In this document: positions 713 through 58,831 of the stretch, piece by piece
Numbering within the stretch: position 1 is the stretch's first letter
Layout of the letters: the number at the start of each line of letters is the position of its first letter
From: Sphagnum compactum
Taxonomy: Eukaryota
Assembly (NCBI GenBank): GCA_965153455.1
Contig: OZ234493.1
Coordinates: 28,572,213 to 28,636,212, forward strand
Direction of reading: 5' to 3'
DNA: 64,000 nt
Translations under genes and position numbers: made by a program
Notes under the pieces: model-generated
Databases searched by the model: none
Seen by the model: the letters and a program-made list of their open reading frames with translations, nothing else
What the model was told of the DNA's origin: nothing

Positions 713-904
713 TTCTAAAAAGTTCGGCAGTCCAACTTTCTACCGACGAAGCAGTCGGGAGGAAGTGCGTTTTGCCGACAATTGGTAAGTGTCCGAGGTT
801 CTAAAAAGTTCGGCAGTCCAACTTTCTACCGACGAAGCAGTCGGAAGGAAGTGCGTTTTGCCGACAATTGGTAAGTGTCCGAGGTCACGCCAGACTAACA
901 CTAG
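713..904 (+). repeat. 86-bp tandem duplication ending near a possible Helitron 3' terminus (CTAG|T at 901-905)
   Basis: TTCTAAAAAGTTCGGCAGTCC...GTCCGAGG at 713-798 and 799-884, followed by ...ACACTAGT. Confidence 0.6.
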
Positions 905-1296
905 TACGGACGAACTCCGGAGGTCCGGCTATGGCGTGAAGCTCAAGCTCAGTTATGGAGCAGCAAGAAGGAGGAGGAGGAGGAGGAGGAGGAGGGCGTC
1001 CAAAGGAAGAAGGAAGGGAATGAATTGATGAAGAGGAGAACAATAAGCAAAACTTATGTCCCAAGAGCAAATACAACAGGAAGGGATTTCGCATCAGGTA
1101 CAGAAAAACTTAACACCGACAACGCTAGATTGGAATTTCTCTCTATCTCTCCCTATTGCCAAAATTTCTTTCAACGCAACGAACTAAGATTTGTGTCCAA
1201 GAGAACGAGCAGGATGGATTTGCGTGAGGAATTTCTCTCTTTAGATTTCGGCCTTCAAGCCCATATATACTCTCACTCCTCGGGTGATTCTTCACA

Positions 1297-1984
1297 TCTT
1301 ATATATAAAGTGCCTTGTCTGTCCGTCGAGGTCCTGAAAGTCGAGGTCTTGTCCGTCCGTCGAGGTCCTGAAACCCAGATCGGGACCCGTAAAAGTAAAA
1401 TAACCACCCAAAAACCTGCCTGGCTCCTCTTTTCCGGGTTTTCGTGAAACCCGGCAGTTCTGTGCACGAAAACCCGGCAGTTCTGTGCACGAAAACCCGG
1501 CAGTTCTGTGATTATGTGGATGAAATATTATACGTTTTTAGTTCCGTCCAATGAGCTCAGAGTTCTGCATGGGTGGTTATGAGGATGAGATATCATGTAT
1601 TTGTAGTTCCGTCCAATTAGGAGGAATGATTTGTGGATGAAATATTGTAGTTTTGTCCACTTAGAGTTTTGGATGGATTGATTATGTGGATGAAATATTT
1701 ATGTATTCGTAAGTTCCGTCTAATGATAAGTTTTGCATGGTGATTTATTTGGATGAAATATCATGTATTTGTAATTCTGTCCAATTAGGAGTTCTGGATA
1801 GATGATTATGCAGGTGAAAATATTACGTATTTAGAGTTCCATCTAATTAGGAGTTCTGGATGGATTGATGATGTGGATGAAATATTATGTATTTATATAA
1901 TTCTATCCAATTAGGAGTTCTGGATGGATGATTCTGTGGCAGCAGGGCGGCTCTGAATGGTGCCCCTGCTGGCGTTTATACCAG
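1297..1984 (+). mobile_element. Probable non-autonomous Helitron with internal minisatellites
   Basis: A|TCTTATATATAAAG...GTCTGTCCGTC 5' end resembles the 6875-7199 element. Internal 22-bp and ~60-bp tandem repeats. 3' hairpin CAGCAGGG/CCCTGCTG (1940-1971) followed by CCAG|T. Confidence 0.5.
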
Positions 1985-3471
1985 TAATGTTCCATCTAAT
2001 TAGGAGTTCTGGATGGATTGATGATGTGGATGAAATATTATGTATTTATATAATTCTATCCAATTAGGAGTTCTGGATGGATGATTATGTGGATGAAAAT
2101 ATCATTATGTGCTGCAGTGATTCTTCACATTTGCTTCTTAGTAATGGTTAAATGACCATACTACTTTACTAAGTCACTAATCATTTGAATAAACCTTCCT
2201 TAATACAACACGTGGGATCCAATAGCATGCTGGTTAGCTCAGTTGGTTTATTTACTACCTACCAACTAACTAGGTAGGTAGTAAAAACAGCCCCTACCTA
2301 CTATGTATAAACTATCTTGGTACCTAGTAGTACCCTATTTTTGTTACCTACCTGTTTATATGTTAGACCATATGTTAGAGCTACTTCTTATACAATGGGT
2401 TACCAAGATGAAGCCGGGTAGTAACTCAGTTGAGGATCATCCACAACTAAGTCGTAACAGGCATCCATCCAGTGGATGGTGCACTGGTGGGTGCTGGTTC
2501 AACGGTTAGGTGTTAGGTAACCAACTTGGCAGTACGTTTGGTATATAGATCAACTAATTTTCTGGTTGATCTGGCCACAAGAAGATTTCTATCCTGGAGA
2601 TGGGGTTCAATATGTGAGATCAAATGAAAAAGTTGGATGCCTTCATCCCTTTTCATCCATCAACATGAGGGTTATGATTGTCACTTTGGAACCTCTAGAT
2701 GGGTAGGTTATGGCTCGTAACATGGCTCAAGGTCGTCAACTATTGGAAATACCTTTGACATTCCTACACCTCAAGTATTTCTCATAACTATCGGATCAAC
2801 TCGAGCTGGTTACCTAGTCAATTTACAAAAGCTTAGTTTGTTGCATGGAAATATGGATTATGCACTTGGTAACTACATTGGTCTATGGCTATTCAAAGTG
2901 GCTTATGTATCTATTACATATAGTGTGGAGTAGGGTGCCATTCCAATTCTGCATTCAATGGTAACAAAAGGATAATCAAAATCCAATTGAAAAAAAAGTA
3001 TTTGGACCACCAAAAAGTAATTAAATTGAACACCCTTAAGGGCTTACCCACCAACTACATAATTTAGAAATTAAACTATATTAAAAATTGAAAAAAATTG
3101 AATTTGAACAATCATAAACTATTTTATTCTTTGGTAAAAACAATGGTACATTAAATGAATTGAGGCAATTAATTTTCTGTGGTTTTTATTTTCTTTTAGT
3201 TTTAGAGTTTATTAGAGTTCCCACTCGAGTTTGAAGTTTGAAGGCAAGAATCTAAACCTTTTCCCCGTTCGGAAGTCTCAATATTTTACACTTTTAATAA
3301 CTAGCCAATACAGTTAACTTAACGCTAGTTCCAGCTGATGGGGGTTACAACGGGCAACTCAAAACGGTCAGATTCCATTTTTCCAGCAAACGGCTCTTCC
3401 CGTAAAATGTGACGGTTACAGAATTCCCGTTATGGGACGGTCGATTTCCTGGCGGCGGGTTTAACACCACC

Positions 3472-3502
3472 CGGGTAAATCCTGACGCCCGTAACCTACT
3501 AG
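3472..3502 (+). mobile_element. Possible Helitron 3' terminus
   Basis: CGGGT...GCCCG hairpin followed by TAACCTACTAG|T. The 5' end was not identified. Confidence 0.35.
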
Positions 3503-6500
3503 TTTTTTTTTGGGGACAAAAATCGCCAAAAGGTGATAACGTGGAACATTTCTGGCGAAATTTCTATTTTTCTTCCAGAAAGAGGTCGCAAAAATTTTCC
3601 CTCTGTTTTTTTTTGGGGGGGGAGAGGGAGGGAGGGAGGTTATCGCTGCAGGTCTGTCTACTGGTGAACTGTGTTTTAATCGTTCTGAACAAAAATGTCG
3701 CCAATTAAGTTGAAATCTGTCTGGGGATGCTCGCCACTATTGCTAAACTACAAAAATTAGGGAAAATAACATTACAGGACACCACCCGGCCATAGTTGCT
3801 GGGCACCGCCTACCAAATAATTCCCAATCGATTGGCACCGCCGGGTAAAACTTTGCACCATGGCTAATCACCGCCCGGGAGCGCCGCCTGAAACGTTTTT
3901 TCTGTCGTAATAAGAGCAGCAAGTTCCCAAGTGTTCTCTCATATCGCTCCCCAACATGAGAAGATTGGATCGGCGATTTGGTGCAGAATCAGCGTTTAAT
4001 GTAGGCGTCAATTGAGGCGGAAATGTCGCCAAATTTAGAGGAGTCTCCTACAAATTGCAATTCAAATTTGGCGGCGTTCTTTGATGGCTACAGAGCTGTC
4101 CTACTACTCCTTAGCTAAACCGACCTTCAACTTGTAACACTGTTTTGAGTAAGTCCAGCCTCTGGAGTGTGGGTGCAGGTGTCTGATTCTTTGCATGTGT
4201 TCTTGGCATGTGGTCTTAGCTGCTAGCTCAGCCATACCAGTCACCATTAAGAGAGCTTGTCAGAATCCCATTAAAAATATATATGATGTGAACCTGCAAC
4301 GCTTTTATTACTCAAGAAAATGCGGTGATTGAATAAGAGACAGAAAAATGTGAAAGTAAGAGCATCTCCACCGCACACTGCATAACTTGTTTTGGATGAC
4401 TATGATGAGGAAAGGTTTGCCTAATAAGCCCAGCATCTGCAGCGGTGCTCAGTGCTCAGTATGGGACCCTGCACACATCACCAGCGGTGCTCAGTAATGG
4501 GCCCTGTGCAAACGTATTTTTCAAGTTCAAGTGTAATTAATTATTTACTTTTTTGTAACCTCAACAATAAAATTGAAACTGGAACAGCAAATAGGTAGGG
4601 AGCTATTAATAGCAAATCGCCTGAAGCAATCATTATGATTGGCCAATCAGAATCGCTGAGCAGCAGTTAGATCGTAATTCGTACACTATGTTGTTCTGCC
4701 GGTGCACAGCATTGCAATGCCATTCACCAGACACCGCAAATTATGCTGTTATGCTCAGCCAAAACCAGTTTCCTCAGCCAAACTGGAATTTTCTAAACCC
4801 CTTAACATGGAACTGAGATGGTAAAACATGGCTTTCGCCAGCCTCTGCATCTTGTGCAGATATGCCAGCCAAAAGCCATTTTTTCAATATATGTAACAGG
4901 TAAGTTTTTCCTGTGCATCAGACAGTGACTGCCGCACAGTGCGTTGGATCCCTATCTTGATTGGTTTAGGTGGTTTGCTACTTAGTAAGTTTTGACTTTT
5001 ATAGTCCCAGTTTCATGCTTATGGGTGAGGGTCGGGAACAGTCGATAACTAATCTTAGATGTAAGAAATTGTGTTACAGGGTGGAATGCCGAGCATGGGT
5101 GGAGCTGCTAAAGACGTGTTGACATTTGACATAATTGTAAGTTGGAAATCTCAATGATTCTGAGCTAAATTAGAAGTCATCCTCGAATCACCAATAGCAC
5201 ATAGAATATGTGAAGTAGTAATGGTGGAGGGAACTACAAGCGGTGGAAGCATATATAATATGTGAAGTGGCCATTGCAATGGCCTAAGGGGTTGCAAGTG
5301 GTGGAAGTTGAGAGGTGGCCAAGGCCAATTGGAATGCTACAGTATTGAGCCATGATAAACTTTTCTCTGATTGGTTAGGACAATTCGGTGGTCTTCAAAT
5401 TCCAATTTCAAATTTCGGGTTTCATGGGTCTTAACTAGGAATGATCATTACAGGCAATCTTAAGCAATCTTAAGATTGCTGACAACATTTGAACGGTACA
5501 CTCATCAACTAAGGGCATCTGCACCTTCAGCTTCAGTTTAGGAAGATCTCGAGCTCTTGACTTCAGATGTTCACAATTTGCATTTCAGTTTTGCAAGGCC
5601 GGCAAGCTACATCTGCTAGCTCCACCTTCAGCAAGAACATTTAATGCTACTGGAAATGAACCCCAGCTGCACCCGCGGTGCATCTTCAGCTTTGGAATTT
5701 CATGCCGATGAAATGCAACTGGACCTTCCAAAGTTGAAGGTGTACCTACTCGATGGTAAAGGCTACTCGATGTGTAGCCCTTACCTAAGTGCCGTGGTAC
5801 ACTGATAGCACACTGATTTATTGTCAACAAGGATTAAATAGCATATTAGGTTTATATAAACATTGAAGCCACATTGATATGAACGTGTAAGAAAAAGGAA
5901 GGGGGACGGGCTTGATAAAATAAGAGGAAAAAAATTTGACACGGTCCCATTTAAAACAAGGTATTATTTCATCTCCATTACACATAATTAAACAAAAAGA
6001 AAAATGGTGCAATATTCAATTGTTCAACTAATGTACATTGTTCATGATAGAGATTATATAGCACTAATTATGTATAACCCAACAAATGCAATAATTTGCC
6101 TAAGGTCAAGCTTATAATTTTTTATAATAAAGTCATACTTATTTACCTAGAGAACTTGAACTTATTTAACATGGGGTAGCATCAAGGTTCAAGTTCTAAT
6201 TCAATTTTGAAAAAAGGTCAGTTATTTGATTAGGTTTCAATGGCAGTTCCAATAGAACTCAAAACCTCTAACCCGGAGATTCTATAACTTTCAATTTAAC
6301 TTAAGACTTGCCTAAATTGTAGAACCTTCCAACACTGGTATCTTCAACATATAAAATATATAAGTCAAGCTCCAAATCTCAATGATGTGGAGTTAAAGTA
6401 GAAATTGTCTACTTTAGAAATAGAAGTAGAAATAAGTCAACAACATAATATATGAAGAGATAATGGGTGAGACTTATATAAAACGTGTGAACCGATATAA

Positions 6501-6874
6501 TGGGCAAGGGGTCAGCAAACTATAAAAGTCTAGAAGACAATGGTTTGCAATAGAATGTCAATTGCACAAAGTCCATGGAGATGGAAAAAAGCTCAATTAT
6601 CAGTAAGTCCAAATGTTCTAGAGCTATAAAAGGAACCAATATTTTGAAAAGTGGAGGTTGTTTAGAAATTCTACCTTGTATTATTGTTGGGACTTGTTAG
6701 CCTTTCAAGGCAGCTCCCTACTACCTTGTCTAGTTGAAAAAAAGGAATTATTTTATTGATATTTGTCAAAATTGTTGAGGATTGAAGTCCCAACTTGTTT
6801 TAAAATATTTATTGTCCAAACCATCGGGTTACTATTACAGATCCACAACAAAGTCACTTTGTACATAATAGATA

Positions 6875-7199
6875 CTAGTGTGAACCCGGTGCATAATGCA
6901 CCCGTCGAGCTCCTCCTCGCCCGGTCTTTCCCATTGCCCACTCCGGTTTTTTATCCTGTCGATCCCCTCGTCCTTCGCATTTTTCACTCCGATTCTTTAA
7001 CCCGTTGATCCTCCCCCTGTTCCCCTGTTATATATAATTAACTTCTCGTCCCGTGCTGGCCTCCTCCCCCCGCCCGTGCTGACCCCCCCCTGCTGGGCCC
7101 CTCGCCTCGTCACCTATCACCCGCTGCTTCACCGACCCCTCCCTCCCCCACCCCCCAAAACCTCCGTCACAGACAGACTTATTGAATTAATATATATGA
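6875..7199 (-). mobile_element. Non-autonomous Helitron (~325 bp)
   Basis: On the minus strand: A|TCATATATATTAA... 5' end, hairpin GGTGCATTATGCACC about 13 nt before the terminal CTAG|T, and no TSD. An uninterrupted copy of the target site lies at 7293-7320. Confidence 0.85.
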
Positions 7200-9249
7200 T
7201 TTGAAAAAAAAAAATACATTATTGACCAAATGGTTGAGGAGTAAAACCTAGTTCACCTTTCGAACATTATTTGGAAAGATATAATACATTATTCACTCTG
7301 TACATAATAGATATTTGGAAAGAAAAAACAAAGTCGTGAAATTGACTTTCAGTTTTGTATATAGTTATACAACATGTGCTTATGCGGTCAGCAACATGTA
7401 TTTGTGACCCGGTTTATAAGAGCATCTCCAGCAGTAGGCCAAAATTAGTGAGTCAAAATTTGGAGGAAGTCTGTGGCTTGAAAAGGCCAAAATTTGGACG
7501 AAGGCTGTGGCTTGAAAAGGCCGTTTGCTCCTCCTCTAACCCTGCCCATTTGATGGCAGGGTTTTCAAAGGTCCATGAAAAGGAAAATGACTCTACCACG
7601 ATTGGCACTTGTACTGGCCCTTTTCCAACTGATAGCAGAGCTGGGATTTTTTCAGTTTTTTAAAATAGTGACGCACGGGCCGGTACCTTCCACTGGTTAG
7701 AAGATCCCAATCCAGCCTGGCAGGTACCTTCTACGGTGGAAGATCCCTCTTGATGAAAACAGGTTTCTTCAGGCAGGTAATGGACCTGAAAATACAAAGG
7801 AAAAATCCAGGTGGTGCTTTACCCCTGCAAAGCGGTTCCCCAAGGTTTCAATCGGTCAGATTCCCAACCAGGTTTAGGGTTCATGTTGCTGTTTAATGTG
7901 ATTGTTATGATAGAGAAGAAACCAGTGACAAATGTCATGTTTCGAAACTCTAGTAGATGCGAAAACTACAAGTGTGAACAGGTGTGAATTTAACCAATTT
8001 CTACCTGACATGTGCAAAAAAAGACAACCCACGTGGTAAATTCCACCAGGAGATTGTTTTAAGATTATTAGACAAGAGGGTTCAAAAGTTTACTTTTGAT
8101 AGCTTACTCATGCAAACATGTTTCAAAAGCCGTAAATTGGCCAATTTCTCGGGAGTGTGTGCAAGCTTGGCTAAATGCATAAGTTCCTGGAGGTTGCAAT
8201 AATAAAAGAGCAGGATTTGTCTTAAAATTTACCTCACACCAAATTTGACTCACTCCTCTTTTGGAAGATTAGCACGCCTCGTGCTTCACAAAGGTGAAAA
8301 AAAAACCATGCACTGTATTCACACCAGTCAGTCAAACCTTGTAGCATAACCACATAAGTACCCACGCTGCATGTAGGGAACGCTGCAAAACGCAATGTGT
8401 TTAACATCCTGGGACTGAAAGTGCAAAGACACTAAACGCCCTCCCCTCAATCCAGCATTGTCGGGCATAAAAAGTGATTGACAATGCCCAAAACCTGATT
8501 TTTTTGTTTCAAGGTTCGGCTGTTTTAATCTGCGACATATGTTAAATGCAACAAAAAGGAATTGTCCCTTTTTCTGGGTCAAAGGAATGTTGCTAGTTGA
8601 TACTTTTTCTCTCAGGGGGGAGGTGTTAGATTCAAATTCAGCCTGGTGCAACAATTTTTTTTTAAAAACATATAAATTATGTTTTTTTACAGAGCATGCA
8701 AAATGTGAAAAAACCTGCCCGATTCAACACAAAACATGCAAAGCACAAAAAGACAAGCCAAAAAGGTGCGAATGAGAGAGAGCGAGCTTGATGGGGGTGT
8801 TTAGCATCTCCCGTTGTTGTGAATATCAGACTCAACAATTAACAAGAGTAGCTAGTGTAGGCATAGTTAACCAAGAGTGAATTTCGTCTAACAGCCAATG
8901 GAAAGTAAATAGAATTATGACTGGCAGTTGTCAGTCTAGTTGGGAACTTGATAGGAACACTTGGGAGGAGGAAAAAAACCAAAGAATTCCTGGTTCTTCC
9001 CCTGCCCCTGAAACTATGACCCCCTGGAGTATTGAAGTATTCAATCCAAACATAGAAACATATAAAGATGTTCAAATATCTGAGCTTACTTTTATGGTTT
9101 CAAGAGGACAAAAGTTTCTCCACAGCACTATGCACCAAATTGAGCTTCCCCATCCCACGGCTCCTGGTCTCAACGCATATACAGCCAGCCCATAGATTTA
9201 ACAAGGATACACCTATTTTGTTGTGTGCATCGAAAAAAGCATATAGTCA

Positions 9250-9530
9250 CATATTTAGATGTTTACATTAACAAGCCGACAATTTCTTTCATCGATGTGA
9301 CGACATGACATGATCAATGAAAGGTTTTGAAGGTCTTCTTCATTCAATTATACATTCATTTTGTAGGCAAAGGGTGTCAATGATTCTTGAGAGAATTTAG
9401 GTTGTCACTATCTTCCGTCAGGCAGTTGTGACAACATGAAAAGCCTCTTCTAGTTCGGTGTTTTTTCAAGTTTTTCACTGATCTCCTTGTATGATTTGCT
9501 TTGTGCTACTAGTGATAGGTTTAGGTCTTA
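9250..9530 (+). mobile_element. Second, shorter fragment of the same RLE/CRE-like LINE 3' end
   Basis: FRCLH*QADNFFHRC...FCRQRVSMILERI*VVTIFRQAVV is homologous to 60580-60780. Confidence 0.5.
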
Positions 9531-12500
9531 GGTTTTGTGTTTTCTCCTCTTAGGGCTCCCCATTGTGCATTTTGCACTTTCAAGTTTCATCCTATCTTCT
9601 TTTTACTTCTCTTGTTCCCTTGTTGGATTTTTTCCTTTATTCATTTATTATATACAGTATTGGCTAAATCATATGTGACAAAATGAAGTATTATTGGGAA
9701 CAACAAAAATCCAAAAACTTCCAACACCTTCCTTGTCTTACCCAAAAGAAAAAGGTACATTTTGGTTCATCTCATTTGTGACTTTGTGTAGGGTTGAGCA
9801 TTGTCAATCACTTTTTGCACTAGATGATTGGTGGTGTCTAGAGATTTTCGGACTGGTCAAAGCTCGTTGGGGCTGTCTAGAGACTTTTTGTAGGCCAAAA
9901 TGCTCTTGTAACAAATGATCAGATTCCAAGCTGGGGTTGCTCGTTGATGTTCAATGCGGTTTTAATTCCAAATGGTGGGTTCTATTCATAATCTAGGAAT
10001 GTGTTGAATTCAGCCATCATGTTGCAGCCTACAGCTGCCTGTTCACAAGCATCGAATGATGTAACTCAAATCTAGTAGGTACCAAAGTAGGCTTACTCAA
10101 ACACAAAGAATCTCCAGACAAGAGTAGCTGGCAACTGAATAAGGCAACACTAAACACAAAGGAACCATGCTCTACCATTGTTTACCATCCACATGGAGCA
10201 CTGAGACCCTAACAAGAATACAGACAATTATATCATCCCTTGTTTGGTGATGTGACAATTATTTGGTGTCCAGGTAATTTGTGTGTCATCAGCAAAGGTC
10301 ATGCAAAGGTGTAATCAGCAAAGGAGATTCAAAGGTGTCATCAGCAAGGGGCTGTGTTGGGGTGACATGCAAACAGCTTTGTTCAGCGATTTTTTCATCA
10401 CTCCATGCATGCATGGCAACGTGGTATTGACTCATTTCTGTAGAATGTTCTGTTAGTTGAAGCATGTTATTTAGTCTTTTTGCTCTGTTAGCAATTGGCA
10501 GATGTCTGTCACCGAATTTCATTGAAGCCTTCAATGAACTGGGTTGTTACAACTGGGAAAGAAGAAAGAAAAGACAAGCCTGCAAATGTGGCAGAAAGAG
10601 ATGGTTTTGGGTATGTGCATCTCTCTAATAATAATAATAACAATAAGATTGTTCAAAATTGGTGTCTTAAATGTTGCATGTCTTTTTGCATGTGACTCAT
10701 GCAAAGCAAGTTGCAAGTAGCATTTATCAAGAATTCCCTTGCATTTTACACAACATCCAGAGCTTGTCTGATTTTTTAACAAATGTTAAACTTGTCTGTA
10801 TAGAATTTCAAGTACTTTTGAGAGAGGAAGTTTCTTATCACATGGGAATTCCAAAATTTGTCAGGATTCCTTTTTTCAAATAATTTGCTGCAACTGATGA
10901 GCTCTGACAGATGAAAAAAGATCATCCAATGAATCTTTGGTTGACCATCATCCAGTTGGATGAAACCCAATTTTAGAACCCCCCCCTCCCCCCCCCCCCT
11001 TGCACACTTTTAGAACCCTCAGCTATGGGGGAGTACTAGAAGAAAAACTTCATTTTTCGACTTGTCTTAGGCGACTAAAAGTGTCTTTTGCGACTAACTT
11101 TTAGTCGCCTCAGACAAGTCGAAAAATGAAGTTTTTCTTCTAGTTTAGCTGAGGGAACAAAAACCCAATGAAAAACAAAGTGTCCTGTCCACACACCATC
11201 CATCCATCCATCCATCCATTGTGCTAGACTTGGCGGTGCTAGTTTGCCATGGCTGGCTAAAAGAGGGTATACAGTGTAAAGCACACCCTCTATTTTTCAG
11301 TGTAGTTTCAAGGTACCATGATGGGGGCCAACTTTGGCAGGTACAAGTGGGGGATCACATGCAATGACACAAAGGAAGATGGGCTTTACATAATGTGCCT
11401 TGGTGTAAGGCCCTTACTGTCAGTGCATTATTCACTGGAGATGTTTGCAACCGACCTCTGGTCAGTTCCAGGCCTTTTTTATTGACCCAGTCTGTCTGTG
11501 TACAGACAAGGGTTACTTACTGTATTGGTTAAGTAACCCTCAATAATAGAAGGGTGTTGAGTAGGCTTCTTGTCTTGTAGTGTGTAGAAAAAATGTTTAG
11601 AAAAAATGTTTATGACCAATGAAATTGTTGGATTTGGTGGTCTGAATTTTGTTTGTCTTCGTTATTATCTCGAGTGAACTAACAATTAAATGTGTATGTA
11701 AGAGGGTTAATTAACTCATAGGTTTGTGAGGATTTAAGAGGACTAATTAATTAATTAATGGGGCATGTTAGAAAGGCATCACTATTTTCAATGTTCAACA
11801 AAATAAGGTTATGAGCAAGCTCCGTCCGAGTTTTTTTTTTTCAACCAATGGAGTTATTATTAGATTTGGTGATTTGAATTTGCTTTCTTAGTTACCTTGA
11901 CTGAACTAACAGTTCAATGTGTAATGTTTTATTTACAGACAAAGTTTTAGCAAATTACTTGTGCACTTTGTTCTAGTAGTGAAGTTCGTGACAAGGGGAA
12001 ATGAAAAATGCAAAAATGATTTTTGAGGGTTTCAATTGTTAGAAGTTTAAAAATGGCTAAAATCACAAGGCTTTTATATATTTGGTTTCAAGAACTAATC
12101 TCCCCTTCCCCCCCCCTCCCACCAAACTTAAATTTCTTTACTTTCATACATAGTTTATAGCCAAATTTTGGCTGAATCTTCCTATGGATGGATGATCATC
12201 ACTTTGGTTACATCACAAAATTCATAAAGAATTCATTGGTCAATTCCTTGTAATCACAAATTGCGTAAGACATTTGTATTCATTTCCTTTACTCCAAAGA
12301 AATCTATGAAACAACTTGCTAGCACTAAACATGTGCTTGTCTATTATTGTTGCCCAATAGGGAACCATTTCATTTTTAATTTTTTTTGGAACTATATAGG
12401 AATTATCACAAGCAATATATGTGTGACTAGTATCATGTATTTTCCAAATTAAAAAAAGCTTGATCCATTTGTTTCAAGATTTCTTCTTTAAATCAAAGAT

Positions 12501-14240: not shown

Positions 14241-16072
14241 AAAAATTTCAAATGTTTCATTTTAAGTTTTTTTTTTTCATTTTGATTTAATTGCTCCATT
14301 TTTTCTCAAAAGTGTTACACAACAAGAATGGAAAAACCAAAAAAAAAAATTGTTTTACCAAACAATGGTTTAATTTCTAACTTACAAGTTGATTTAACTA
14401 TCTAAAGCCTACCAAATATAACTCCAAACATTTACAAACATATTTTCTTCATTATAATGTTGCCATGTTTAATAATAATAATAGATAAATAAATAAAACA
14501 CAAGTTGAACATGAGTTTTTTTGTTGCATATGAACTTGAAAATAAATCAAAACAAATAAATAAACAAATGATTTTTTAAAAAACCTAAAAACAAATGGAA
14601 AGAAAAATCTTTACTTATGAAATGGAAAATGGAGTTATAATTTCAATGTAATGTTTCCATGCTTTTCATTGTCAAACTTGCACAAAACAGGCGAGGATGG
14701 GGGGTAATACCAAACTAATGCAATGGGTTGGGTAACAATGTGAGGAGATGAACAACATGGAAAACAGGTCAAAAAGGTATCAAAATTGAAAGGTCAATTA
14801 GCAACATGAGATGCCAAATAGTAGTAGTTTGAGAGACTAAACAATACCAATGCAAGGGGTAAAGTAGCAATGCAAGGTGTCAAACAACAATGAAAGCGGT
14901 CAAGCATAAATGTGAAGTGTGTGAAGTCCCAAGCAACAACACAAAGTGCTAAACAATAACAAAAGGGGCCAAATAATAATGCAAAGGGGAATGTAACAAC
15001 ATGAAAAGTTGTATAAGAAATGGAAGGAACCAAGACGAATAAAAACCTATAGGCCACCCAAAAAAAAATTTAACACAAGAAAACAAAACCAAAGTTGAAA
15101 GCTCAAGCTACGAAACACAAAACAAAATTCAAATGAAACACATAAATGAAACAAACAAAACAAAGTGGGACCCAAGCTAGACTTGGGACCCATTTTATCT
15201 TCTTATGAAGACAATGACAAGAAGAAAAGAACCAACAATTGGGGCAATGTCACCTTAAAACATGAAACACTATTTTTTTCTTTGGATACCTAGACTATAA
15301 ACTAGTAATTAGTAAAATAGCCTAAGAAATAGACTAAACATTATGCCCCTAAAATTGAAAATTGTACCATGTTTTTTTAAATACCTTGTTAGGGTATCGT
15401 TATTATCAAATTCATACACCTTGCGAATGTGTCAAGGGGCAAGTTCTCACCTTAATGAAATCTTAAGGGTTGAATATCAACCCAAATATCATTATGAGTG
15501 ATATTTGGCAGCTCTCCTAGTTAGGACAAGGAGAACTTTCTCAAACTTCTAACTAGTTTTCACATGATTTTTTATATTCACTCAACATTGGTTGAAACTA
15601 GTTGACATGGGGATGCAATGAACTATAAGCTATATAGTTTCCCAATGTTTGTTTGAACTATGAGGCTAGTTTATTAAAAAAATACACTTACTTTTGAAGC
15701 ATGAAAGGAATGTTGGTCATGGATTAATTTCAAGCATGTTTGTGGTCATTAATTAGAGGTGATAATTACAATATATGAGTCTTTTATCATCAAGTGAATC
15801 AAACTTTCATCTTGGTGGATTTTTATAAAAAAAATTGAGCTTGCAATGTTTTGGACATATAATGTGAATACCAAATATCTAGCTTTGAAGGTGTTGTTCA
15901 AATATTTTTGCTTTGCAATATGATGTAACACAATATTGGTATCATGATTGCCATCATATTTCATAGGACTCTTACTTCTTTCAAGTTCATAATTAAATGT
16001 GTTATCTTATTTGAACTTTTTGAAATGTTTTGAATGGATTGTGCAAATGATGTTATCTTGTGTGGAGTAGAA

Positions 16073-16457
16073 TGTCATGGCCTAGGATATTTTGGGATAC
16101 TTTTAGCAATGTCATGTCCTAGGATATTTTGGGCAATATCATGGCCTAGGATATTTTGGGATACTTTTGGCAATATCATGGCCTAGGATATTTTGGGATA
16201 CTTTTGGCAATGTCATGTCCTAGGATATTTTGGGCAATATCATGGCCTAGGATATTTTGGGCAATATCATGGCCTAGGATATTTTGGGATACTTTTGGCA
16301 ATATCATGGCCTAGGATATTTTGGGACTAGTATGGCTCAGGGTTATAAAAAGAGATAGTTTGGGGAACAACCCTTTAGCAGATCAACACCAGTTGATGGG
16401 TCAGTAAAGCTTGTCTTGTCTTGTAATTCTCCACTTGTTTGTAGTCGGTCCATAATA
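16073..16457 (+). repeat. 5' LTR (385 bp; U3 has 8 copies of a 27/37-bp unit)
   Basis: TGTCATGG...CCATAATA. TATAAAA at 16344-16350. The non-repeat 3' part differs from the 3' LTR by 3 C/T transitions. Confidence 0.93.
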
Positions 16458-16597
16458 GTTTGATCTGCTCCTTCTTCTTGTTTGTTTGTTTTGTTGTTTC
16501 AGTAAGTAGCTAGAGGTATATTGGAGTGAAACTTGGAAAGGTTATAGACTATAGGACGCTTCTACTCTCAAAGTTTCAAAAGAAAAGGATATGTTTT

Positions 16598-17250
16598 GAG
16601 AGAGATCCAAGCATCTGAAATTTCAAGTGTAGATCTGGTTTTTTGGTCATATCTCCTTTGTGTAAGCTTTTTTGGGTCTGTAACTTTGTGATCTTATAGA
16701 TCATATAGGAATATATGTGTGAGAGAAATTTCATGTCATTTGGACTTGTATTGAGAGAGATCCAAGCATCTGAAATTTCAAGTGCAGATCTGGTTTTTTG
16801 GTCATATCTCCTTTGTGTAAGCTTTTTTGGGTCTGTAACTTTGTGATCTTGTAGATCATATAGGAATATATGTGTGAAAGAAATTTCATGTCATTTGGAC
16901 TTGTATTGAGAGAGATCCAAGCATCTGAAGTTTCAAGTGCAGATCTGGTTTTTTGGTCATATCTCCTTTGTGTAAGCTTTTTTGGGTCTGTAACTTTGTG
17001 ATCTTATAGATCATATAGGAATATATGTGTGAGAGAAATTTCATGTCATTTGGACTTGTATTGAGAGAGATTCAAGCATCTGAAGTTTCAAGTGCAGATC
17101 TGGTTTTTTGGTCATATCTCCTTTGTGTAAGCTTTTTTGGGTCTGTAACTTTGTGATCTTATAGATCATATAAGAATATATGTGTGAGAGAAATTTCATG
17201 TCATTTGGACTTGTATTGAGAGAGATCCAAGCATCTGAAGTTTCAAGTTT
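16598..17250 (+). repeat. 155-bp tandem repeat x ~4.2 in the retrotransposon 5' leader
   Basis: GAGAGAGAT(C/T)CAAGCATCTGAA... starts at 16598, 16753, 16908, 17063 and 17218 (partial); copies are nearly identical. Confidence 0.95.
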
Positions 17251-17286
17251 GAAGATTGAAAGCGCAAAAGTGTGAGAACTACCACC

Positions 17287-18261
17287 ATGGACAACTTAGA
17301 ATCCAACATCGATCTCACTCAAATCCTCGCCGCCCTTCAGCACCTTCAACAAGAAAATGCCGTGCTTAGAGACTCGGTGACCCGCCTACAGAATCAGCCA
17401 CCACCTCCTGCCCCAGTACTTTCTGCTCTTGTAATGGCCGCCCAAGAGCCCAAGATCAGTCTGCCAGAAAAGTTTGATGGAACGCGCCTCAAATTTCGAG
17501 GCTTTGTCAGCCAGGTACGCCTGATCATGCAACTACACCCCCGTCGTTATTTTGATGACACCATTCGTGTAGGATTCGTTGGAACCCTACTTACTGGGAT
17601 AGCTGCAGCATGGTTTGCTCCCATCCTGGAAACATCATCCCCTCTTCTACAAGATTTCAACGCCTTTATGGCAGAATTTGAAGCAGTATTTGGGGACAGT
17701 GATAAGGCCAGGACTTCAGCCAACAAGCTACGTCGCCTCCAGCAAGGGACACGTTCGGCCATCGTCTATGCCTCAGAATTCAGGCAGCTTGCCTGTGACG
17801 TCAATTGGGGAGAAGCTGCCTTGATTGATCAGTTTCGCTGTGGGCTTCGTGATGATGTTCAAGATCTTTTGTTGACACTCGCAGACCCTTCTTCCTTCAG
17901 TGAAGTCATCACCCAGGCAATTCGGTGCGATAATCGTCTGTTCGAACGTCGCCAGGAAAAGAAAGTCACCTCCAACGCCCAGCTTTGGAACAGGCGGCCT
18001 ACTACGCTCCCCTTAGTTCCCCAAACAACACCAGTTGCCCAACCTGCCTCTTTTGGACCTGCTCCGATGCAGATCGACACAACTAAGTTTAAATCTTTGA
18101 CAGAAGTCGAGAAACTTCGCCGAAGGACAAACAATCTATGTCTTTACTGTGGCAACCCAGGGCATATAGCTCGTCAATGCCCTCAAAAGCTTGTCAAACT
18201 TCAGGTACAAGCTGTGGAAACTCCCCAGGAGTTAGAAAACAAGAACATCCGGTCACAGTAG
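17287..18261 (+). CDS. gag: Retrotransposon Gag (capsid + CCHC zinc knuckle)
   Basis: ATG at 17287 in ACCACCATGG context. Motifs EPKISLPEKFDG, LRRLQQGTRSAIVYASEF, PMQID and CLYCGNPGHIARQC are typical of Ty3/Gypsy (PEG10/sushi-like) Gag. Confidence 0.95.
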   Translation: MDNLESNIDLTQILAALQHLQQENAVLRDSVTRLQNQPPPPAPVLSALVMAAQEPKISLPEKFDGTRLKFRGFVSQVRLIMQLHPRRYFDDTIRVGFVGTLLTGIAAAWFAPILETSSPLLQDFNAFMAEFEAVFGDSDKARTSANKLRRLQQGTRSAIVYASEFRQLACDVNWGEAALIDQFRCGLRDDVQDLLLTLADPSSFSEVITQAIRCDNRLFERRQEKKVTSNAQLWNRRPTTLPLVPQTTPVAQPASFGPAPMQIDTTKFKSLTEVEKLRRRTNNLCLYCGNPGHIARQCPQKLVKLQVQAVETPQELENKNIRSQ

Positions 18262-18309
18262 GAGCCGTGCGACTGGATCTCACCCAACACCACCTTTGCA
18301 AAGGCTCCT
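18234..18309 (+). promoter_or_regulatory. Putative -1 programmed ribosomal frameshift signal (slippery site + pseudoknot)
   Basis: A_GAA_AAC at 18234-18240, 6-nt spacer, stem 1 ATCCGGTC (18247-54)/GACTGGAT (18271-78), and loop AGGAGCC (18260-66) complementary to GGCTCCT (18303-09). Confidence 0.7.
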
Positions 18310-21300
18310 GTTCCGCTGTTGGTCCCAGTCCCAGTTTCACTCAGTATGTGGACATCATTCGTATTCCAGAAGACATACCACAAGTGTCAGCTTTGGTGGA
18401 CTCCGGCGCCACCTCTTCTTTCATCGACCAAACATTTGTCGTCCAACACAACATCCCTGTGGTCAAGAAGTCAACCCTTGTTCCGGTAGAGGTTATTGAT
18501 GGGAGAACCATTGCTTCTGGTGCAATCACACACGAGACAACCCCTCTAGAACTCTGTATCGACAAGCACAAGGAGAAGATTGTTCTCAACATCATTTCCA
18601 CCCCTCACCATCCCATCATCCTTGGTCTGCCTTGGCTAGAAGCACACAACCCTATCATTGATTGGCGATCTAGAACCCTCACCTTCAGCGCACAACGATG
18701 CACCTCTCAAGAACCCCACGCTCAGAAAAACACTTTGTCTAGTCCTGCCAAGAACCCTGTGGTCGAGAACCTAAAGAGGGTCAGAACCAATTCCAGTTTT
18801 ATCAAGTCTGTTATGTCAAATCATGCAGTCAAGAACCCCCGGTTGGTCAGAACGAAACCTTGTCCTGTCAAGAATCTTGTCAAGAATCCTGCCCAGAAAA
18901 CCAACCCTGTTCAGATCTTCGTTGATAGAGCTGTCCCTTTCTATCGGGCTGCTAAGAATCTTCAAGTCTTCGCCATCCATGTCAACCCAGCCAACACCAC
19001 AAACCCCCAATCAGAACCAACACCTGTCAAACTTCCCAAGAAGTACAAGGACTTTGTTGATGTTTTTGAAAAGATTAATGCTGATCAGCTCCCCGCCCAT
19101 AGTCCATATGACTGCCCGATTGATCTAGAAGAAGGACACTCACCACCCTTTGGTCCTATCTATGGCCTATCGGAACCGGAACTCCAAGCCCTGCGTGATT
19201 ACCTTACTGAAAATCTTGCCAAGGGGTTCGTTCAGCATTCCAAGTCTCCAGCCGGCGCCCCAATTTTGTTTGTCAAGAAGAAGGATGGCTCCCTTCGACT
19301 CTGTGTGGATTATCGTGGACTCAACAAGATAACCAAAAAGAATCGATATCCTTTGCCCTTGATTTCACGTCTCCTAGATCGACTACGTATCGGGAAGATC
19401 TTCACCAAGCTTGACCTCCGTGGAACCTACAACTTACTCAGGATTCGCCCTGGTGATGAATGGAAGACAGCTTTCCGCACACGCTATGGCCACTTCGAAT
19501 ACACGGTCATGCCCTTTGGCCTCACCAATGCACCCGCAGTCTTTCAGCATCTGATGAATGATATCTTCCGGGATTACATGGACGAATTTGTCGTGGTCTA
19601 TTTGGATGACATTTTAATCTTTTCCAAGGACCAGGAAACCCACGACAAACATGTACGATTGGTGCTTGCGACGCTGCGGGAGCATGGCTTATACGCCAAG
19701 TTGGAAAAATGTGAATTCGACAAATCTTCAGTGGCGTTCCTCGGCTACGTGATCTCTCCAGATGGCATTTTCATGGACAAGTCAAAGGTCGAGACCATCC
19801 AGTGTTGGGCTACTCCATCCTCGGTCAAGGACGTTCAACGCTTCCTAGGGTTTGCCAACTTCTATCGTCGGTTTATCAAAGGCTACTCTAAGATCACAAC
19901 ACCGTTAATAACCCTGACTTGCAAAGACAAGCCCTTCTCGTGGAATCCAACGGCCCAGGCTGCTTTTGATACTCTCAAGATGGCATTCACCTCTGCACCC
20001 ATCCTGATACATCCCGATCCTGCCAAGCCATTCATTGTGGAAACGGACGCTTCAGATTTTGCCTTGGGAGCTATTCTATCTCAATTTGGAATAGATGGGT
20101 TGCTGCATCCAATTGCTTTTTATTCACGGAAGTTAACCAGTGCCGAAATCAACTACCAGGTCTACGATAAGGAACTTCTGGCAATCATCACGGCATTCGA
20201 GCAGTGGAGACCGTATCTTGCCGGAGCTCAACATCGAGTCCAAGTTCTAACAGATCACAAGAATCTCCTTTATTTCACAACTACTCGGACCTTAAATCGT
20301 CGCCAGGCACGCTGGTCTATCTTCCTAGCTGATTTCGACTTTGAGATTCAGTATCAACCCGGCACCCAGCAAGGGAAAGCTGACGCGCTATCTCGTCGTT
20401 CAGAATATGAACTTCGAGCGGGGGATGAGGCCTACGGCCAGCAGAACCAGACTTTACTCAACCCCGAGCAATTTCGAGTTGCAGCAACAATCAGCACCCT
20501 CCCAGACTCATACCTTGTCAGGGACATCAAGATGGCAACTGAGGAAGACACCTGGGCTACCAACATCAAGAAGGAACTCCAGGAACGACCAAGGAACCCA
20601 AATCGTGATGACTTGGATCAATTTGAGCAGCAAGACGGACTTCTCCTTCGAAATAACCTGATTTATGTACCCGAAGGACCTATACGCCTAAAAATCCTGA
20701 GGGAATGCCACGACAACACCCTGGCAGGTCACTTTGGAATGGCACGGACTCACGAACTAGTGTCAAGGACTTACTGGTGGCCCAAAATGAACAAGATGCT
20801 ACGGGAGTATGTCAAGTCTTGTGATACATGTGCTCGATCCAAGGCTCCCAGGCATCGCCCGTTTGGACTCCTACAGCCTCTGTCAATTCCTAGCCGACCT
20901 TGGGGATCTATTGCAATGGACTTCATCACGGACCTCCCTACTGTCAGAACCAAGAATTCAATACTGGTTGTGGTCGATCGACTCACCAAAATGGCCCATT
21001 TCACCCCTTGTTCCAAGTCAATTACGGCAGAAGAGACAGCTTAGTTAATTCTGGATGGGATCGTCCGACTGCATGGACTCCCCGAGGAAATTGTGTCCGA
21101 CAGAGGTCCTCAGTTTGCATCCAAGTTCTGGCATCGTCTATTCGAGCTTCTTGGAGTTGACATTCGGCTATCTTCAGCTTTCCACCCTGAGACAGATGGA
21201 CAAACCGAACGGACAAATCAGACACTCGAGCAATACCTTCGCTGCACTGTGAACTACCAACAGGACGACTGGCTGGACCTACTATCTCAAGCAGAGTTTG

Positions 21301-21992
21301 CTTATAATAACACAACACATGCATCGACCGGGGTCAGTCCATTCTTTGCCAATTACGGTTTTCATCCCAGGTTCAGCCTTGAAATTCCTGGAGACTCCGT
21401 AAACCCCTCGGCTGAAGAAAGGGCCACGAGGCTTGGACAGGTTCAACAGAACCTTATGGCAGAACTCAAGCTAACACAGGAGTGGCAAAAGAAGCAAGCA
21501 GACCGCCGACGCAAGGACCATCCAAACTTCAAGGTTGGAGACAAGGTCTGGCTTCTCAGAAAGAACATTGCTACCACTCGCCCATGTGCCAAGTTGGATT
21601 ACAAGCGCCTCGGACCTTTCAAAATCGCCAAATTGGTTGGTCTAGTGGCTTGCCAGTTGGAGCTTCCACCCCAGTTCAAAATCCATAATGTTTTCCATGT
21701 CTCCCTGCTTGAGCCCTATCATGAAAACCCGATCCCAGAACGTCATCAAGAACCCCCAGCTCCAGTCGAAATTGAAGGCCAAGAAGAGTTTGAAGTTCAG
21801 GAGGTCTTGGACTCCAAGAAGATTCGTGGAAAGCTCCTGTACCTTGTCTTTTGGCGAGGTTATCCTCCTTCTGAAGCTACTTGGGAGCCTGCTGGAAACC
21901 TAGTTCATGCCCAAGACTTAGTTAATCGGTTTCACCAACGATATCCTAACAAACCGGCTCCATCTAGAAGATGTCGCTTGAGGAGAGGATAA
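18234..21992 (+). pseudogene. pol: Retrotransposon Pol (PR, RT, RNase H, integrase, chromodomain) in the -1 frame to gag, broken by one in-frame TAG at 21042-21044
   Basis: ALVDSGAT (protease); LCVDYRGLN and YLDDILI (RT); ETDASDFALG, DKELLAI and TDHKNL (RNase H); H-x6-H...CDTC, IAMDF, SDRGPQF and DGQTER (integrase); FEVQEVLDSKKIRGKLLYLVFWRGY..EATWEP (chromodomain). ORFs 18138-21044 and 21093-21992 are in the same frame. Confidence 0.95.
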
Positions 21993-22222
21993 TGTCATGG
22001 CCTAGGATATTTTGGGATACTTTTGGCAATGTCATGTCCTAGGATATTTTGGGATACTTTTGGCAATATCATGGCCTAGGATATTTTGGGACTAGTATGG
22101 CTCAGGGTTATAAAAAGAGATAGTCTGGGGAACAACCCTTTAGTAGATCAACACCAGTTGATGGGTCAGTAAAGCTTGTCTTGTCTTGTAATTCTCCACT
22201 TGTTTGTAGTCGGTCCATAACA
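21993..22222 (+). repeat. 3' LTR (230 bp; 3 copies of the U3 unit)
   Basis: TGTCATGG...CCATAACA, immediately after the polypurine tract at 21980-21992. Confidence 0.93.
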
Positions 22223-23769
22223 GTTGTATTACATATATTGTCCCTTATATGAAAAGTTCATGTCATGCAATGTTATATAACGTGATTTTGATATTATGAA
22301 TATCATCCTTCATGTTTTTTAGCAATGATACATGCATTTTTGGTGACATATGTTGAACTATTATTCCTTGTTGTATATTTTCAAGCAAAAACCTTCTTTT
22401 TAATATTTGCCCACTTCCAAGGGCAAGAAATTGTCTTTTTGCAAAAATGAATGAATGCCATGGACAAGAAATAATGTCATTAATGTTCACACCAAGTGAA
22501 CATGAAAAATGACCATGATGCATAATACATTGTAAATATAAATAATAATTATACATTATCCCATAAAATGCAACATTTTAGTGGATCGATTGAACAAACA
22601 AAAGGATGATATGCAATTATTAAAGGAATGAAACAAGGTTGTATTCCTGACACACCTTTAAGTTTGTCAAGTGGTAATGGTGGTTGAGAAATGTGTGTAG
22701 AAATCTACCATGCCCTTTTTGTCACTTCAACTACATATATAAGCAAAGAGACTGTTTAATAAAATTTTGAACTAAAAATTGAGTCATAGACACACACAAA
22801 TTCAACCATGACCTACATTTTGGTAAAAAACACTACCCTCATTAAATTATATTTTGCAAGTTTTATTACATGTTTCTATGGGAATTGTATATCTATATGA
22901 CTTTAAAAAAAATAAAATTGGTGGAAGTTCCCAAAACTCAAAATGTTTCAAGCCCAAACTATGATTGAAATTTTTTAAACATAAGGGGTCATTGACACCC
23001 TTGGAATCATGACAATCAATGGTTTTTTAATTGTCCCTAGCTCTTGAATCAATGTTGAAATATTTACATGTATTTTGTCATTATAAGCAATTGATGAGGA
23101 TTGGAAGAAAATGTATTGTTTATTATATAATTGAAATTTTATTGGAACTTTGAGCCAACCTTGGGGATAAATTTATCATCAAATAACTCGAAGTTCAATT
23201 ACAAACATTGATTTTTTTCAAAAAAATTTGTGACTTTCCAACAACAAAAAATAGGATTCCTTTTTCCAATGTCATTCGACTTTTTTTTTCTAATGTTTTG
23301 GGGAAAATTTCAAAAAAATTTGATGTCAAATAATTTTTTAAAGAAGGAAAATCTTTGATGAGAAGGTGGTAAAATAGTGAATTTTCTCAATAAAAATTTA
23401 GAGATTCTATGAAAATGTCATATATGTCCATACAAATGACATTGTTGGACAATAATAGTTGTCAAATGGTCTCGCTATAAGGTATAAGGAACAAGTGTAG
23501 ATTTTTGTTGGTAGAAAACTATGAACATGAAACTTCCCCAACTTGTTTTGATATAACCACAAAGGTGTTGACAACATTGATTAGTATGTGTTGGACATTA
23601 GTGGCTTGAGTGTAATATTCAAACCAAACAACTTGCACCTACATAGGTAAGGTGTTATGCTATTTGCATGACACAATCATGACATCCTTATGAACCATTC
23701 AAATATCAATAACTATAGAAATCACTAATGACACCAACCTTGATGCATTGTGGTTCCATAAGACATAAC

Positions 23770-28646: not shown

Positions 28647-31600
28647 CTATGCTGATAAGATATTTGAGGCAATGGCTGTTACACTAGAAAGCACAGCCAA
28701 TATTACCATTACCCAAGCCTCCCATTTGTCTTTTAGCGTTGCTATCCTGGGCTTGTCCCTGAATAACCCCAACCCCAGAAGCCAACAGTCAGTCAGCATG
28801 CATCAACATCATGGTGAAGTCAACCTGATTATCAACAAGGGAAAAAATAGAGGAAATATGATTAAGTCCATGACACATTGAGCATCAAAAGCATTGAACT
28901 CACTTGAGCAAAATGAGGGCTGGGAAGATAAAGGCCAAGCAAACACTTGCTGTTGCCCCAGTAAATTGGAAAGCAACCCAGATACTGGGCACCATTGTTG
29001 AGCCAATAAAAATAAGACCCACCAATACACCAGTGAGGAGAACAAAGCGAAGGTTGTCATGGACAAGGGGATGTGCCTTTGGGAATAGGAGTCCATCTAC
29101 GTTGAGACGGAGTGAAAAATGCAATAGAGGGAAAACCAACATGATGTGAACAGCATAACTGGCACGCACAATGAGTGCAATTGTGTGGGCGAATGGAATA
29201 CCAAGATCCGTATCAAAATTCGCTAAAACATCATCACTTGTTGCCTCACCAAAGAGAAGATAAGCAAACATGGCAGTGCATAAATAGATGCCCGTGCACA
29301 GCACTAAGGAATCACGAACTACTTTCTGCATCTTTAGATCAGACGGCTCCGTTGAGACCTCAAGCTCATTTGCAATTGGATGCACTGAAACAAGCATTTC
29401 AAATCACAACAGTTTCCAGAGTGTTAAGATTCACTCCCTTTGTTGTAACAACACAGGAAATTGCAGGTGCAAGATAGATGCCAATTATAATCTAAGTGAA
29501 GTTGGAAAAGCACAAGAGGGAGGGAGCAAGCAAGAGAAAACAGACCATTGTGGTGACAAATGTAAGCAGTGACCATTACAGGAACAACTGTAAATAGGTG
29601 CCAAAAGGAAGTTGTGTCATGCACATCAGGTGTCAGTCTTGGCCACTCAATCTCTCCTGCCACTAATTTCCATAAGGCAACTGCCACCGTAATCACCACA
29701 AACACTAGAGCCAATGCAACTGATAATGCAGAGCTCCATTTTAATGAATCTGCCAAACATGGGCCCCACAACAACCAGACCATAATTAATAAACCAGAAA
29801 CCTATTTCACTGAGTATGTCAGATCCTGATATGCAAACCATGTGTAAAGAATAGATGCCATGAGACTATCAATGCGCACATTTGTTTTTGAGTCACATGA
29901 GCCCCACATTCCATTAGCTTCTGTTGGTTGGTCACCATATATGATTAAAAGGACAAGATAATGAAACCATTCAAGCCTTCTTTGTTTGGTTTTATTGCAT
30001 AACTCAAAGCTGCAACTGTGTATGAGAAGAATGTAGTTCTAAGAGTTGACAAAGGCCACCTAAACCCAAAAGAAGCTCTGTTTCTTCATATCATGCAAGT
30101 GAGGAGCCACACATAACATTAGCATTACAATCTGCATCATCATGTATGAATGGAATTTGACTAAATGAGCACTTAACACTGAACAGAAGCAATCTCACAG
30201 CTGTTTTAAAAACTGTGGTGATCATCAAATTGATGTTGCAAAGAGCTGGAGGTAAAACCTATGATTCCAACTTATTTCATTTGAGAGACAAGGGTAAATA
30301 GGTCACAACAGGATACACAACCAACAAGAAATGAGGAAGGACCATGGAGAAATGGTACATGAGATGACGGTGATGACAAGTTTGAGATCAGGGCTGATAG
30401 TGGCAGAAAGACAAAAAATTACCGATGTGTTTGTAAGAACAAAGTGGGAGGAGAATAACAACAGTTGTGGTGAAGAGAACAAAAACCCGCTCATTCCACC
30501 ATGTTCGCCCCCCTGCCCACTCCTCCAGTACACCCGTATGGTGTGGCCCCGCACCGGTTGTCCCAGACATAACATCCCCTGATGATCATTGCAAACTCCT
30601 TTAGAGCATTGTTGCACAACCATTACAGGACTGATCTAGAGCTATTACCTATCTAGTACATCTATAATATTTGGTATTTGGTACTCCTAAAAGCCCATTT
30701 AAGCATTCAAAACTTCCAGGCTGTTTCTTGAACAAATCTTTCTATTTCTCCTCAATGAGATTGTAAAAGCATGAGAAAAATCAAAGAGAAAACCATAACA
30801 AAACTCCTGGTCAATATCATCACAAGCAAAGAGACTTTGCTGATTCACTCTCAATTGTCTGGTACCAGGCTAGGTTCACTCCCCACCATATATACATGAT
30901 TTTCTGAGAGCTGCTGGAGAATATTTTTATTTGGATCCCAAAAACTCTGGAGAAAGTTGACATGGATGGGGTCAGCAAGAAAATAACTCTGAAGTCAATT
31001 CTGAACCATGATGATGCTATGGAGAATCATAATCCCTGAATCATCTAGGGATTCAAGGATAAAGGAAATAGAAAAAAATAATAACAAAGCTATCTTAAAG
31101 GGATGATCTATCCAAGCATTTCTGAGTCTGAATCTCTCCAAGGCATAAACATTGGAGAGACCTAGTGAAATGGGATGCAGCATGGAAGATTCATCAGTCC
31201 CAGCCCAAACAGGAAGAAGAAAAAACATGACTGAAAACAAAAATACTGAGACTGCCCTTGCTGATAAAACTTTAAAAATACAAAGGTTTATATTCCAAAA
31301 AAACACCTAATAAAGCAATTTCATTAGAAAGCAAGAAGAGGTTGAAGACAATATACATTTGATGCCAAGCAAGAAAGAAGCAAAACCCTATCTTCACACT
31401 GGATAGTGTGGCAACAAATTCCATTTCAAATCCTCATTTCCACAAACAATGATTTGTTTTGCAAAATGGGAAGTGGGTCCAGAAGAACCAATCCTGACTG
31501 TATGTGACAGACATGAATGACTGTAAAAACTGTCAGTAAGGAAAGCAGCACAAAGGGAAAACACGTTGTTAAAAGGGATCATAAAAGAAAAAAGAAAAAA

Positions 31601-56933: not shown

Positions 56934-58831
<1,898 letters not shown>

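Follow-up and report, generated by a model that had tools for sequence, protein, structure and literature searches.

The window, a 64,000-nt stretch of DNA, was found to contain an old and defective copy of a high-copy Tf1/sushi (Tcn1-like) Ty3/gypsy chromovirus of a Sphagnum-like moss, and the family to which this copy belongs most likely primes reverse transcription with its own RNA (probability about 0.8 for this reading as a whole). Self-priming had been proposed in an earlier note on this DNA, and the proposal was supported by the lack of a primer-binding site (PBS) starting with TGG, by a complement to the LTR placed 2 nt past its end with the matching site 33 nt past the TATA box, and by compensatory changes in related elements.

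Structure of the element and state of the copy

A Ty3/gypsy chromovirus was identified at 16073-22222 on the plus strand, with gag, a PR-RT-RNaseH-IN region and a C-terminal chromodomain between the LTRs, and no further copies of it were found within the 64,000-nt window. The Pfam domains followed the chromovirus order (Retrotrans_gag, zf-CCHC, RVP_2, RVT_1, RT_RNaseH, Integrase_H2C2, rve, SH3_Tf2-1 and Chromo), and the Chromo match covered the full profile with E = 2e-14. The features were as follows.

16071..16326, + strand: tandem array in U3 with repeat units of 27/37 nt, about 7.7 copies (Tandem Repeats Finder and repeat search)
16073..16457, + strand: 5' LTR, 385 nt, starting with TG; direct repeat with 21993-22222
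16344..16350, + strand: TATAAAA box, predicted core promoter from its letters and from the same spacing in relatives
16377..16386, + strand: predicted self-primer AGCAGATCAA, the putative first 10 nt of R; exact complement of 16460-69
16392..16402, + strand: 5' arm of two further predicted helices, from R to the U5 end (16447-16456), in MFE and consensus folds
16458..16459, + strand: GT spacer between LTR end and PBS; 'gt' also precedes the PBS in most signature-bearing loci
16460..16469, + strand: PBS TTGATCTGCT, complementary to 16377-86, 2 nt past the 5' LTR
16592..17248, + strand: 155-nt tandem repeat, 4.2 copies with 98% identity, in the untranslated leader from PBS to gag (repeat search and Tandem Repeats Finder)
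17287..18261, + strand: gag, first ATG through TAG stop (18259-61); Retrotrans_gag, Ty3_capsid and zf-CCHC
18093..21044, + strand: pol frame, shifted by -1 from gag and open up to an in-frame stop at 21042-21044; encodes protease, RT, RNase H and integrase zinc domain
21045..21992, + strand: remainder of pol, still in that frame, with integrase core, SH3_Tf2-1 and chromodomain (aromatic F, W, Y)
21980-89, + strand: polypurine tract GAGGAGAGGA, overlapping the last pol bases just before the 3' LTR
21993..22222, + strand: 3' LTR, 230 nt, TG...CA; primer-site copy at 22142-22151 reading AGTAGATCAA

The end of the 5' LTR was set by alignment to the 3' LTRs of two relatives (L006 and L007), which end in ...GGTCCATAACA and are divergent beyond. 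In the window copy the terminal CA of the 5' LTR was changed to TA (T at 16456), and the LTR end reads ...ATAATA. Since the LTR end was fixed by the 3' LTRs of the relatives, the PBS was placed 2 nt (GT) after it.

The two LTRs shared 97% identity over their last 211 nt. Their unequal lengths (385 and 230 nt) were explained by the different copy numbers of the U3 array, of which the 3' LTR holds only 2.7 copies (21991-22091); from 7.7 against 2.7 copies it follows that the length of the array has changed after insertion or during reverse transcription. The array may be enhancer-like. Each of the 27/37-nt repeats contains the palindrome CCTAGG, and of the stretch compared with RNA libraries, the array had the highest summed contig depth in these libraries.

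The gag and pol frames overlap at 18093-18261, with pol in the -1 frame. The spacing from gag stop to pol start was kept in two relatives (L004 and L011), which is read as a shared frame offset. In another relative (L002, 10088-10330), a 41-nt deletion directly follows the gag stop. Beyond about 21 nt past the LTR, the leader in the L011/L004 subfamily shows no relation to that of the window element.

The window copy is defective, with a stop in integrase, the CA to TA change at the LTR end and no target-site duplication (TAGAA at 16068-16072 against GTTGT at 22223-22227). Due to the in-frame stop in integrase and the mutated LTR terminus, this copy is unable to complete the cycle. Target-site duplications of 5 bp were detected in L004 (ATAGG) and L011 (ATAAC), and the lack of one in the window copy may be due to mutation or to recombination of two copies.

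Pairing between the LTR and the primer-binding site

The segments 16377-86 and 16460-69 form a 10-nt inverted repeat with 100% complementarity and 73 nt between the arms, and the helix has no continuous extension on either side. The site in the LTR starts 33 nt after the start of the TATAAAA box, at a pyrimidine-purine step. Thus the box at 16344, the site 33 nt on and its exact reverse complement after the LTR, all described in the earlier note, are present in the sequence, and its statement that a TGG-start PBS is missing was borne out as well: no TGG was found in the approximately 60 nt after the 5' LTR, and the window element does not show the feature of a tRNA-Met-type PBS, namely a TGG start within a few nucleotides of the LTR. 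A complement at least this long in the LTR was found for 0.4-0.45% of random windows from the element interior (p ~0.004; 16- or 20-nt windows, 2000 and 1000 draws), an estimate that leaves out the coincidence of the TATA spacing.

A C>T change in the 3' LTR copy of the site had also been noted and was taken to preserve pairing as G-U. The change is present (T at 22144, in a CAG context), and it proved to be private to this copy and to have arisen after insertion, the equivalent position being C in five related LTRs (L002, L004/L005, L006, L007 and L011). It would have no effect on priming by the element's own RNA, because that primer would come from the 5' LTR.

Covariation in close relatives

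Relatives were collected as 79 loci from a pol profile search of metagenome contigs and 1 viral-contig locus, giving 80 loci. The scan of viral contigs yielded one distant locus only (L001, 43% identity). The close relatives L002, L004, L005, L006, L007 and L011 showed 85-94% pol identity and were alignable with the window element through the LTR.

In L011 (85% pol identity), the LTR site was AGCAGACCAA and the PBS was TTGGTCTGCT, a compensatory change from T:A to C:G compared to the window. This change was kept in L004 and L005, in which two more transitions in the PBS resulted in one G-U pair and one mismatch; L004 and L005 are identical over the aligned stretch from LTR to PBS and may be one locus in two data sets. 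In L002 the pairing was lost by deletion of the PBS. The PBS region of the L011 type reads TGGTCTGCTCC, where a TGG-initial site of tRNA type is formally possible.

The abundance and variation of the family were evaluated at 16280-16590 in a DNA run (X4). The summed word depth was about 400-10,000, which fits a high-copy family. Within 16377-86 and 16460-69 no other letter reached 5% in X4, and 16375, 16376, 16400 and 16404 were variable; this invariance of primer site and PBS, seen in contigs that drop rare variants, lent weak support to constraint. One contig from an RNA library (X16) carried G>A at 16381. Contigs of the RNA runs X15, X16 and X18 (three studies) and of X4 showed no pile-up of starts or ends on 16280-16590, a comparison in which contigs cannot show a transcription start, and the RNA contigs were fragmentary, with little or no cover at about 16456-16477.

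Covariation in distant relatives

The earlier note had proposed to look for compensatory covariation between the start of R and the PBS across copies, and such compensatory pairs were detected in L011 and in seven further loci, L008, L013, L014, L017, L022, L023 and L015. Perfect matches at the homologous place, each with a different sequence, were as follows.

L008: site AAGGAGATCAA, PBS TTGATCTCCTT
L013: site AAGGTGAACAA, PBS TTGTTCACCTT
L014: site AGTCTGGTCAA, PBS TTGACCAGACT
L017: site AATTCGAATCAA, PBS TTGATTCGAATT
L022: site ATTCCGGTTCAA, PBS TTGAACCGGAAT

L023 had its own pair at the homologous place, with 12 bp including one G-U. In L015, the site ACTCTCGTCAA (3' LTR) and the PBS TTAACGAGAGT differed by one mismatch in 11; compared to the window, six positions were changed on both sides and, apart from that mismatch, still matched. 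The motif CAACACCAGTTG of the window is found in the L015 LTR directly after the site. Several families of the AGTTCGAATAT and AGTCTGAAAT types were also obtained in the scan.

For the LTR-pair test, 81 sequences (the 80 loci and the window) were searched, and 31 of them had some direct-repeat pair. Twelve were set aside, of which L001, L008, L024, L029, L036, L040, L045, L064, L071 and L079 had only terminal contig overlaps and L017 and L020 were tandem or complex; L013 and L039, with repeats within coding sequence, were dropped from this pass. A helix of at least 9 bp (with at most 1 G-U) starting 0-2 nt past the LTR was found in 10 of the 12 relatives with TG..CA pairs, with p<=0.026 against 1000 interior windows per relative. 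The exceptions were L004, which is decayed, and L015. An apparent lack of pairing in L015, L021, L022, L043 and L068 was explained by incorrectly placed or uncertain LTR ends, or by decay, and pairs were found there by the scan free of boundaries.

That scan, which needs no LTR boundaries, was based on a full signature: at least 10 perfect bp, a PBS 2 nt after CA, and a TATA box 28-38 nt ahead of the site. Of the 80 loci, 18 carried the signature on the sense strand and none did on the antisense strand; many of the 18 come from few related families and should not be counted as separate cases. When the TATA box was not required, the rule of at least 10 bp and CA+2 gave 41/80 sense and 17/80 antisense. 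In the window, L011, L023 and L044, the site starts exactly 33 nt from the start of TATA, and in most of the other matches this distance was 31-35 nt. Long perfect inverted repeats were also seen in flanking DNA of L006 (6842-6999, up to 20 nt) and L028 (6048-6235, 16 nt); these are unrelated to the element.

Predicted folding of the RNA

In the predicted minimum free energy fold of the RNA from 16377 to 16475, nucleotides 1-10 paired with the PBS, and after a 1-nt bulge AC paired with the GT spacer. The RNA of L011 was predicted to fold like that of the window. The consensus fold of three sequences kept the helices, with one compensatory pair. Two further helices between R and U5 were weakly indicated by the models, and in the consensus fold the change from G-U to A-U at column 24/134 of these helices was one-sided. 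The folding energy of the whole structure was not unusual in the window or L011 (z = -0.52 and -0.95, respectively). With such ordinary overall energies, the case for self-priming rests on the specific pairing rather than on stability.

Proposed mechanism and alternative explanations

By the proposed mechanism, the transcript would begin at A16377, about 33 nt downstream of the TATA box, and its 5' 10-mer, AGCAGAUCAA, would fold back over R-U5 in the cell to pair with the PBS. On the model of fission-yeast Tf1, the RNase H of the element would then cut after the paired stretch, and the freed 3' end would prime minus-strand synthesis. No tRNA would be needed for priming.

The possibility that a tRNA of the host, half of a tRNA or some other small RNA acts as primer at or near 16460-16472, the match to the LTR being incidental, was considered very unlikely. 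In this case the 3' end of the tRNA or tRNA half would pair with GTTTGATCTGCTCC. The L011/L004 subfamily reads TGGTCT... at this place, like the start of a tRNA-type PBS, and Neumann 2019 (PMC6317226) reports half-tRNA and imperfect tRNA PBSs for other plant lineages. However, the PBS of the window has no TGG, and a host tRNA would not change with each family, whereas site and PBS co-vary across at least 8 different pairs; the fixed distance of 31-35 nt from TATA to site would also be left unexplained. No tRNA genes were found within the 64,000-nt window, and one doubtful tRNA was returned by ARAGORN on all 80 loci. An accidental complementarity without function in a dead element was regarded as extremely unlikely. 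The helix has only 10 nt, the copy is a defective one that carries a stop codon and a TA terminus and lacks a target-site duplication, and short inverted repeats are common in AT-rich DNA, as illustrated by the antisense matches obtained without the TATA condition (17/80). But such a match is rare at the PBS place (p ~0.004), the pairing recurs with different sequences in relatives, and the full signature was found on the sense strand only (18/80 vs 0/80).

The helix between the 5' end and the PBS might also have been conserved as a structural part of the leader that serves, for example, in packaging, dimerisation or the control of translation, with something else as primer, which we considered unlikely. 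Retroviral leaders have such stems, covariation proves that a pairing is conserved and not what it is used for, and further R-U5 helices were predicted. Against this, the 3' arm lies exactly at the place of the PBS, 2 nt past the CA of the LTR, with no other PBS candidate nearby, and the layout matches that of Tf1 and Tj1, the mechanism having been demonstrated for Tf1 (PMC4600332). Self-priming remained the preferred reading.

A wider reading of the family is possible, and we hold it doubtful when all its parts are taken together. In it, the primers and PBSs of the Sphagnum family and of its moss and fungal-like relatives would form a natural co-evolving series in a fixed frame, with TATA 31-35 nt upstream and a GT spacer past the LTR, the moss-like subgroup having a primer end CAA (PBS start TTG); the family would still be active and might have passed horizontally from or to fungi. 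If this were true, the PBS would be recopied from the primer in each cycle, and the RNase H cut would be set by the conserved CAA/TTG end and not by a fixed 11-nt length as in Tf1. Activity would here be based on the very high copy number and on the presence of the sequences in field RNA libraries.

Classification and comparison with known systems

The chromodomain of the window element (...EEFEVQEVLDS...LYLVFWRGY...TWEP) has F, W and Y at the three aromatic cage positions, as in group-I chromodomains, and the consensus of the relatives has Y, W and Y. Among moss elements, group-I chromodomains were described in Tcn1-like ones by Novikov 2012 (PMC3350952). The named proteins among the best 120 pol matches were from two fungi (Cunninghamella and Powellomyces) and one frog, and no seed-plant protein was among them.

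According to Neumann 2019 (PMC6317226), most chromoviruses of the Tcn1 clade, which is found in mosses and club-mosses, have no tRNA-type PBS and are predicted to self-prime, the rule being a complement of at least 10 bp to the 5' LTR that starts 0-5 bp past the 5' LTR; self-priming was predicted there for 12% of the plant elements analysed, including the copia TAR lineage. In the window element, 10 of 10 nt are complementary and start 2 nt past the LTR. The earlier note had inferred a self-priming chromovirus in a plant genome, in contrast to most plant LTR elements; in view of this prediction for the moss and club-moss clade, such priming is not new for plants. The element is a further case of a known type, since the Tcn1 clade was already predicted to self-prime by the same rule.

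Membership in the Tcn1 clade is likely, the element having been placed by its chromodomain, pol matches, priming rule and moss host rather than by a tree. The clade (REXdb chromovirus|Tcn1; PpatensLTR, SM-Tcn1) shares with the window element the moss host, the gypsy order and a C-terminal group-I chromodomain, and also the fungal nearest named relatives, the lack of a tRNA-type PBS and the LTR complement of at least 10 bp within 0-5 bp. SM-Tcn1 is described with a T-rich stretch after the LTR, which is also seen in the window element. In the relevant passages of Novikova 2010 (PMC2864245), Tcn1-like elements are reported from all mosses examined, and SM-Tcn1 is given without a priming signature. 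The window element differs from the known members as a Sphagnum family. The word Sphagnum was not found in the main text of Neumann 2019 (PMC6317226) or Novikova 2010 (PMC2864245), and no description of this Sphagnum chromovirus family was found in the literature searched; the supplementary tables of Neumann 2019 may list Sphagnum elements.

Tf1 and Tj1 of fission yeasts are, like the window element, chromodomain-bearing Ty3/gypsy elements. Tf1 primes with the first 11 nt of its mRNA, compared to a predicted helix of 10 bp in the window, to which 2 pairs are added beyond a 1-nt bulge. Tf1 has a single ORF, whereas gag and pol of the window element are in different frames. Tf1 of Schizosaccharomyces pombe and Tj1 of S. 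japonicus have a PBS complementary to the 5' end of their own mRNA, as predicted here, and they obtain their primer when the transcript is cut (PMC4600332), as would be the case by analogy in the window element. Self-priming has been demonstrated in Tf1, and for Tj1, an element with a gag stop codon, it has been predicted (PMC4600332). Unlike these two, the window element has a moss host and is known here from sequence alone.

The TAR lineage of plant Ty1/copia elements (Houba, Osr-1) is also predicted to self-prime (Neumann 2019, PMC6317226), but it belongs to another superfamily, with copia domain order and no chromodomain, and has only the predicted priming mode in common with the window element. 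The seed-plant chromoviruses (Tekay/Del, Reina, CRM and Galadriel) are Ty3/gypsy elements, most with a chromodomain or related C-terminal domain. They mostly have a tRNA-Met PBS, and the chromodomain, in those that bear one, is of group II (PMC6317226, PMC3350952); neither feature was present in the window element.

Host setting and significance

Six RNA-library rows from five studies contained 28-38% of the sampled words of the element, four of them labelled moss metagenome and two plant metagenome, which does not in itself demonstrate that the element is transcribed. An amino-acid transporter exon at 28900-29403 (minus strand) showed 99% identity to one Sphagnum protein; identity was 80% for a second Sphagnum protein and 69% for Physcomitrium. 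Because of the identity of this exon and the moss-labelled RNA libraries, the host was taken to be a peat moss or a very close relative, in agreement with the moss and club-moss hosts of the Tcn1 clade.

Sphagnum is ecologically important, and to our knowledge its repeat content has been little described. With the present results, the plant elements for which priming by their own RNA is predicted include a family from peat moss. The prediction is backed by covariation and by the fixed spacing from promoter to primer, which are not reported in the relevant passages of the clade-wide survey (Neumann 2019, PMC6317226). A clear rule for primer and PBS helps to annotate LTR elements that are missed by PBS finders based on tRNA, and the existing knowledge of the self-priming mechanism is unchanged.

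In the remainder of the window, an AVT6-type gene for an amino-acid transporter (Pfam Aa_trans) has exons at 28900-32266 on the minus strand, and an ORF with a KH_2 domain was located at 58000-58404.
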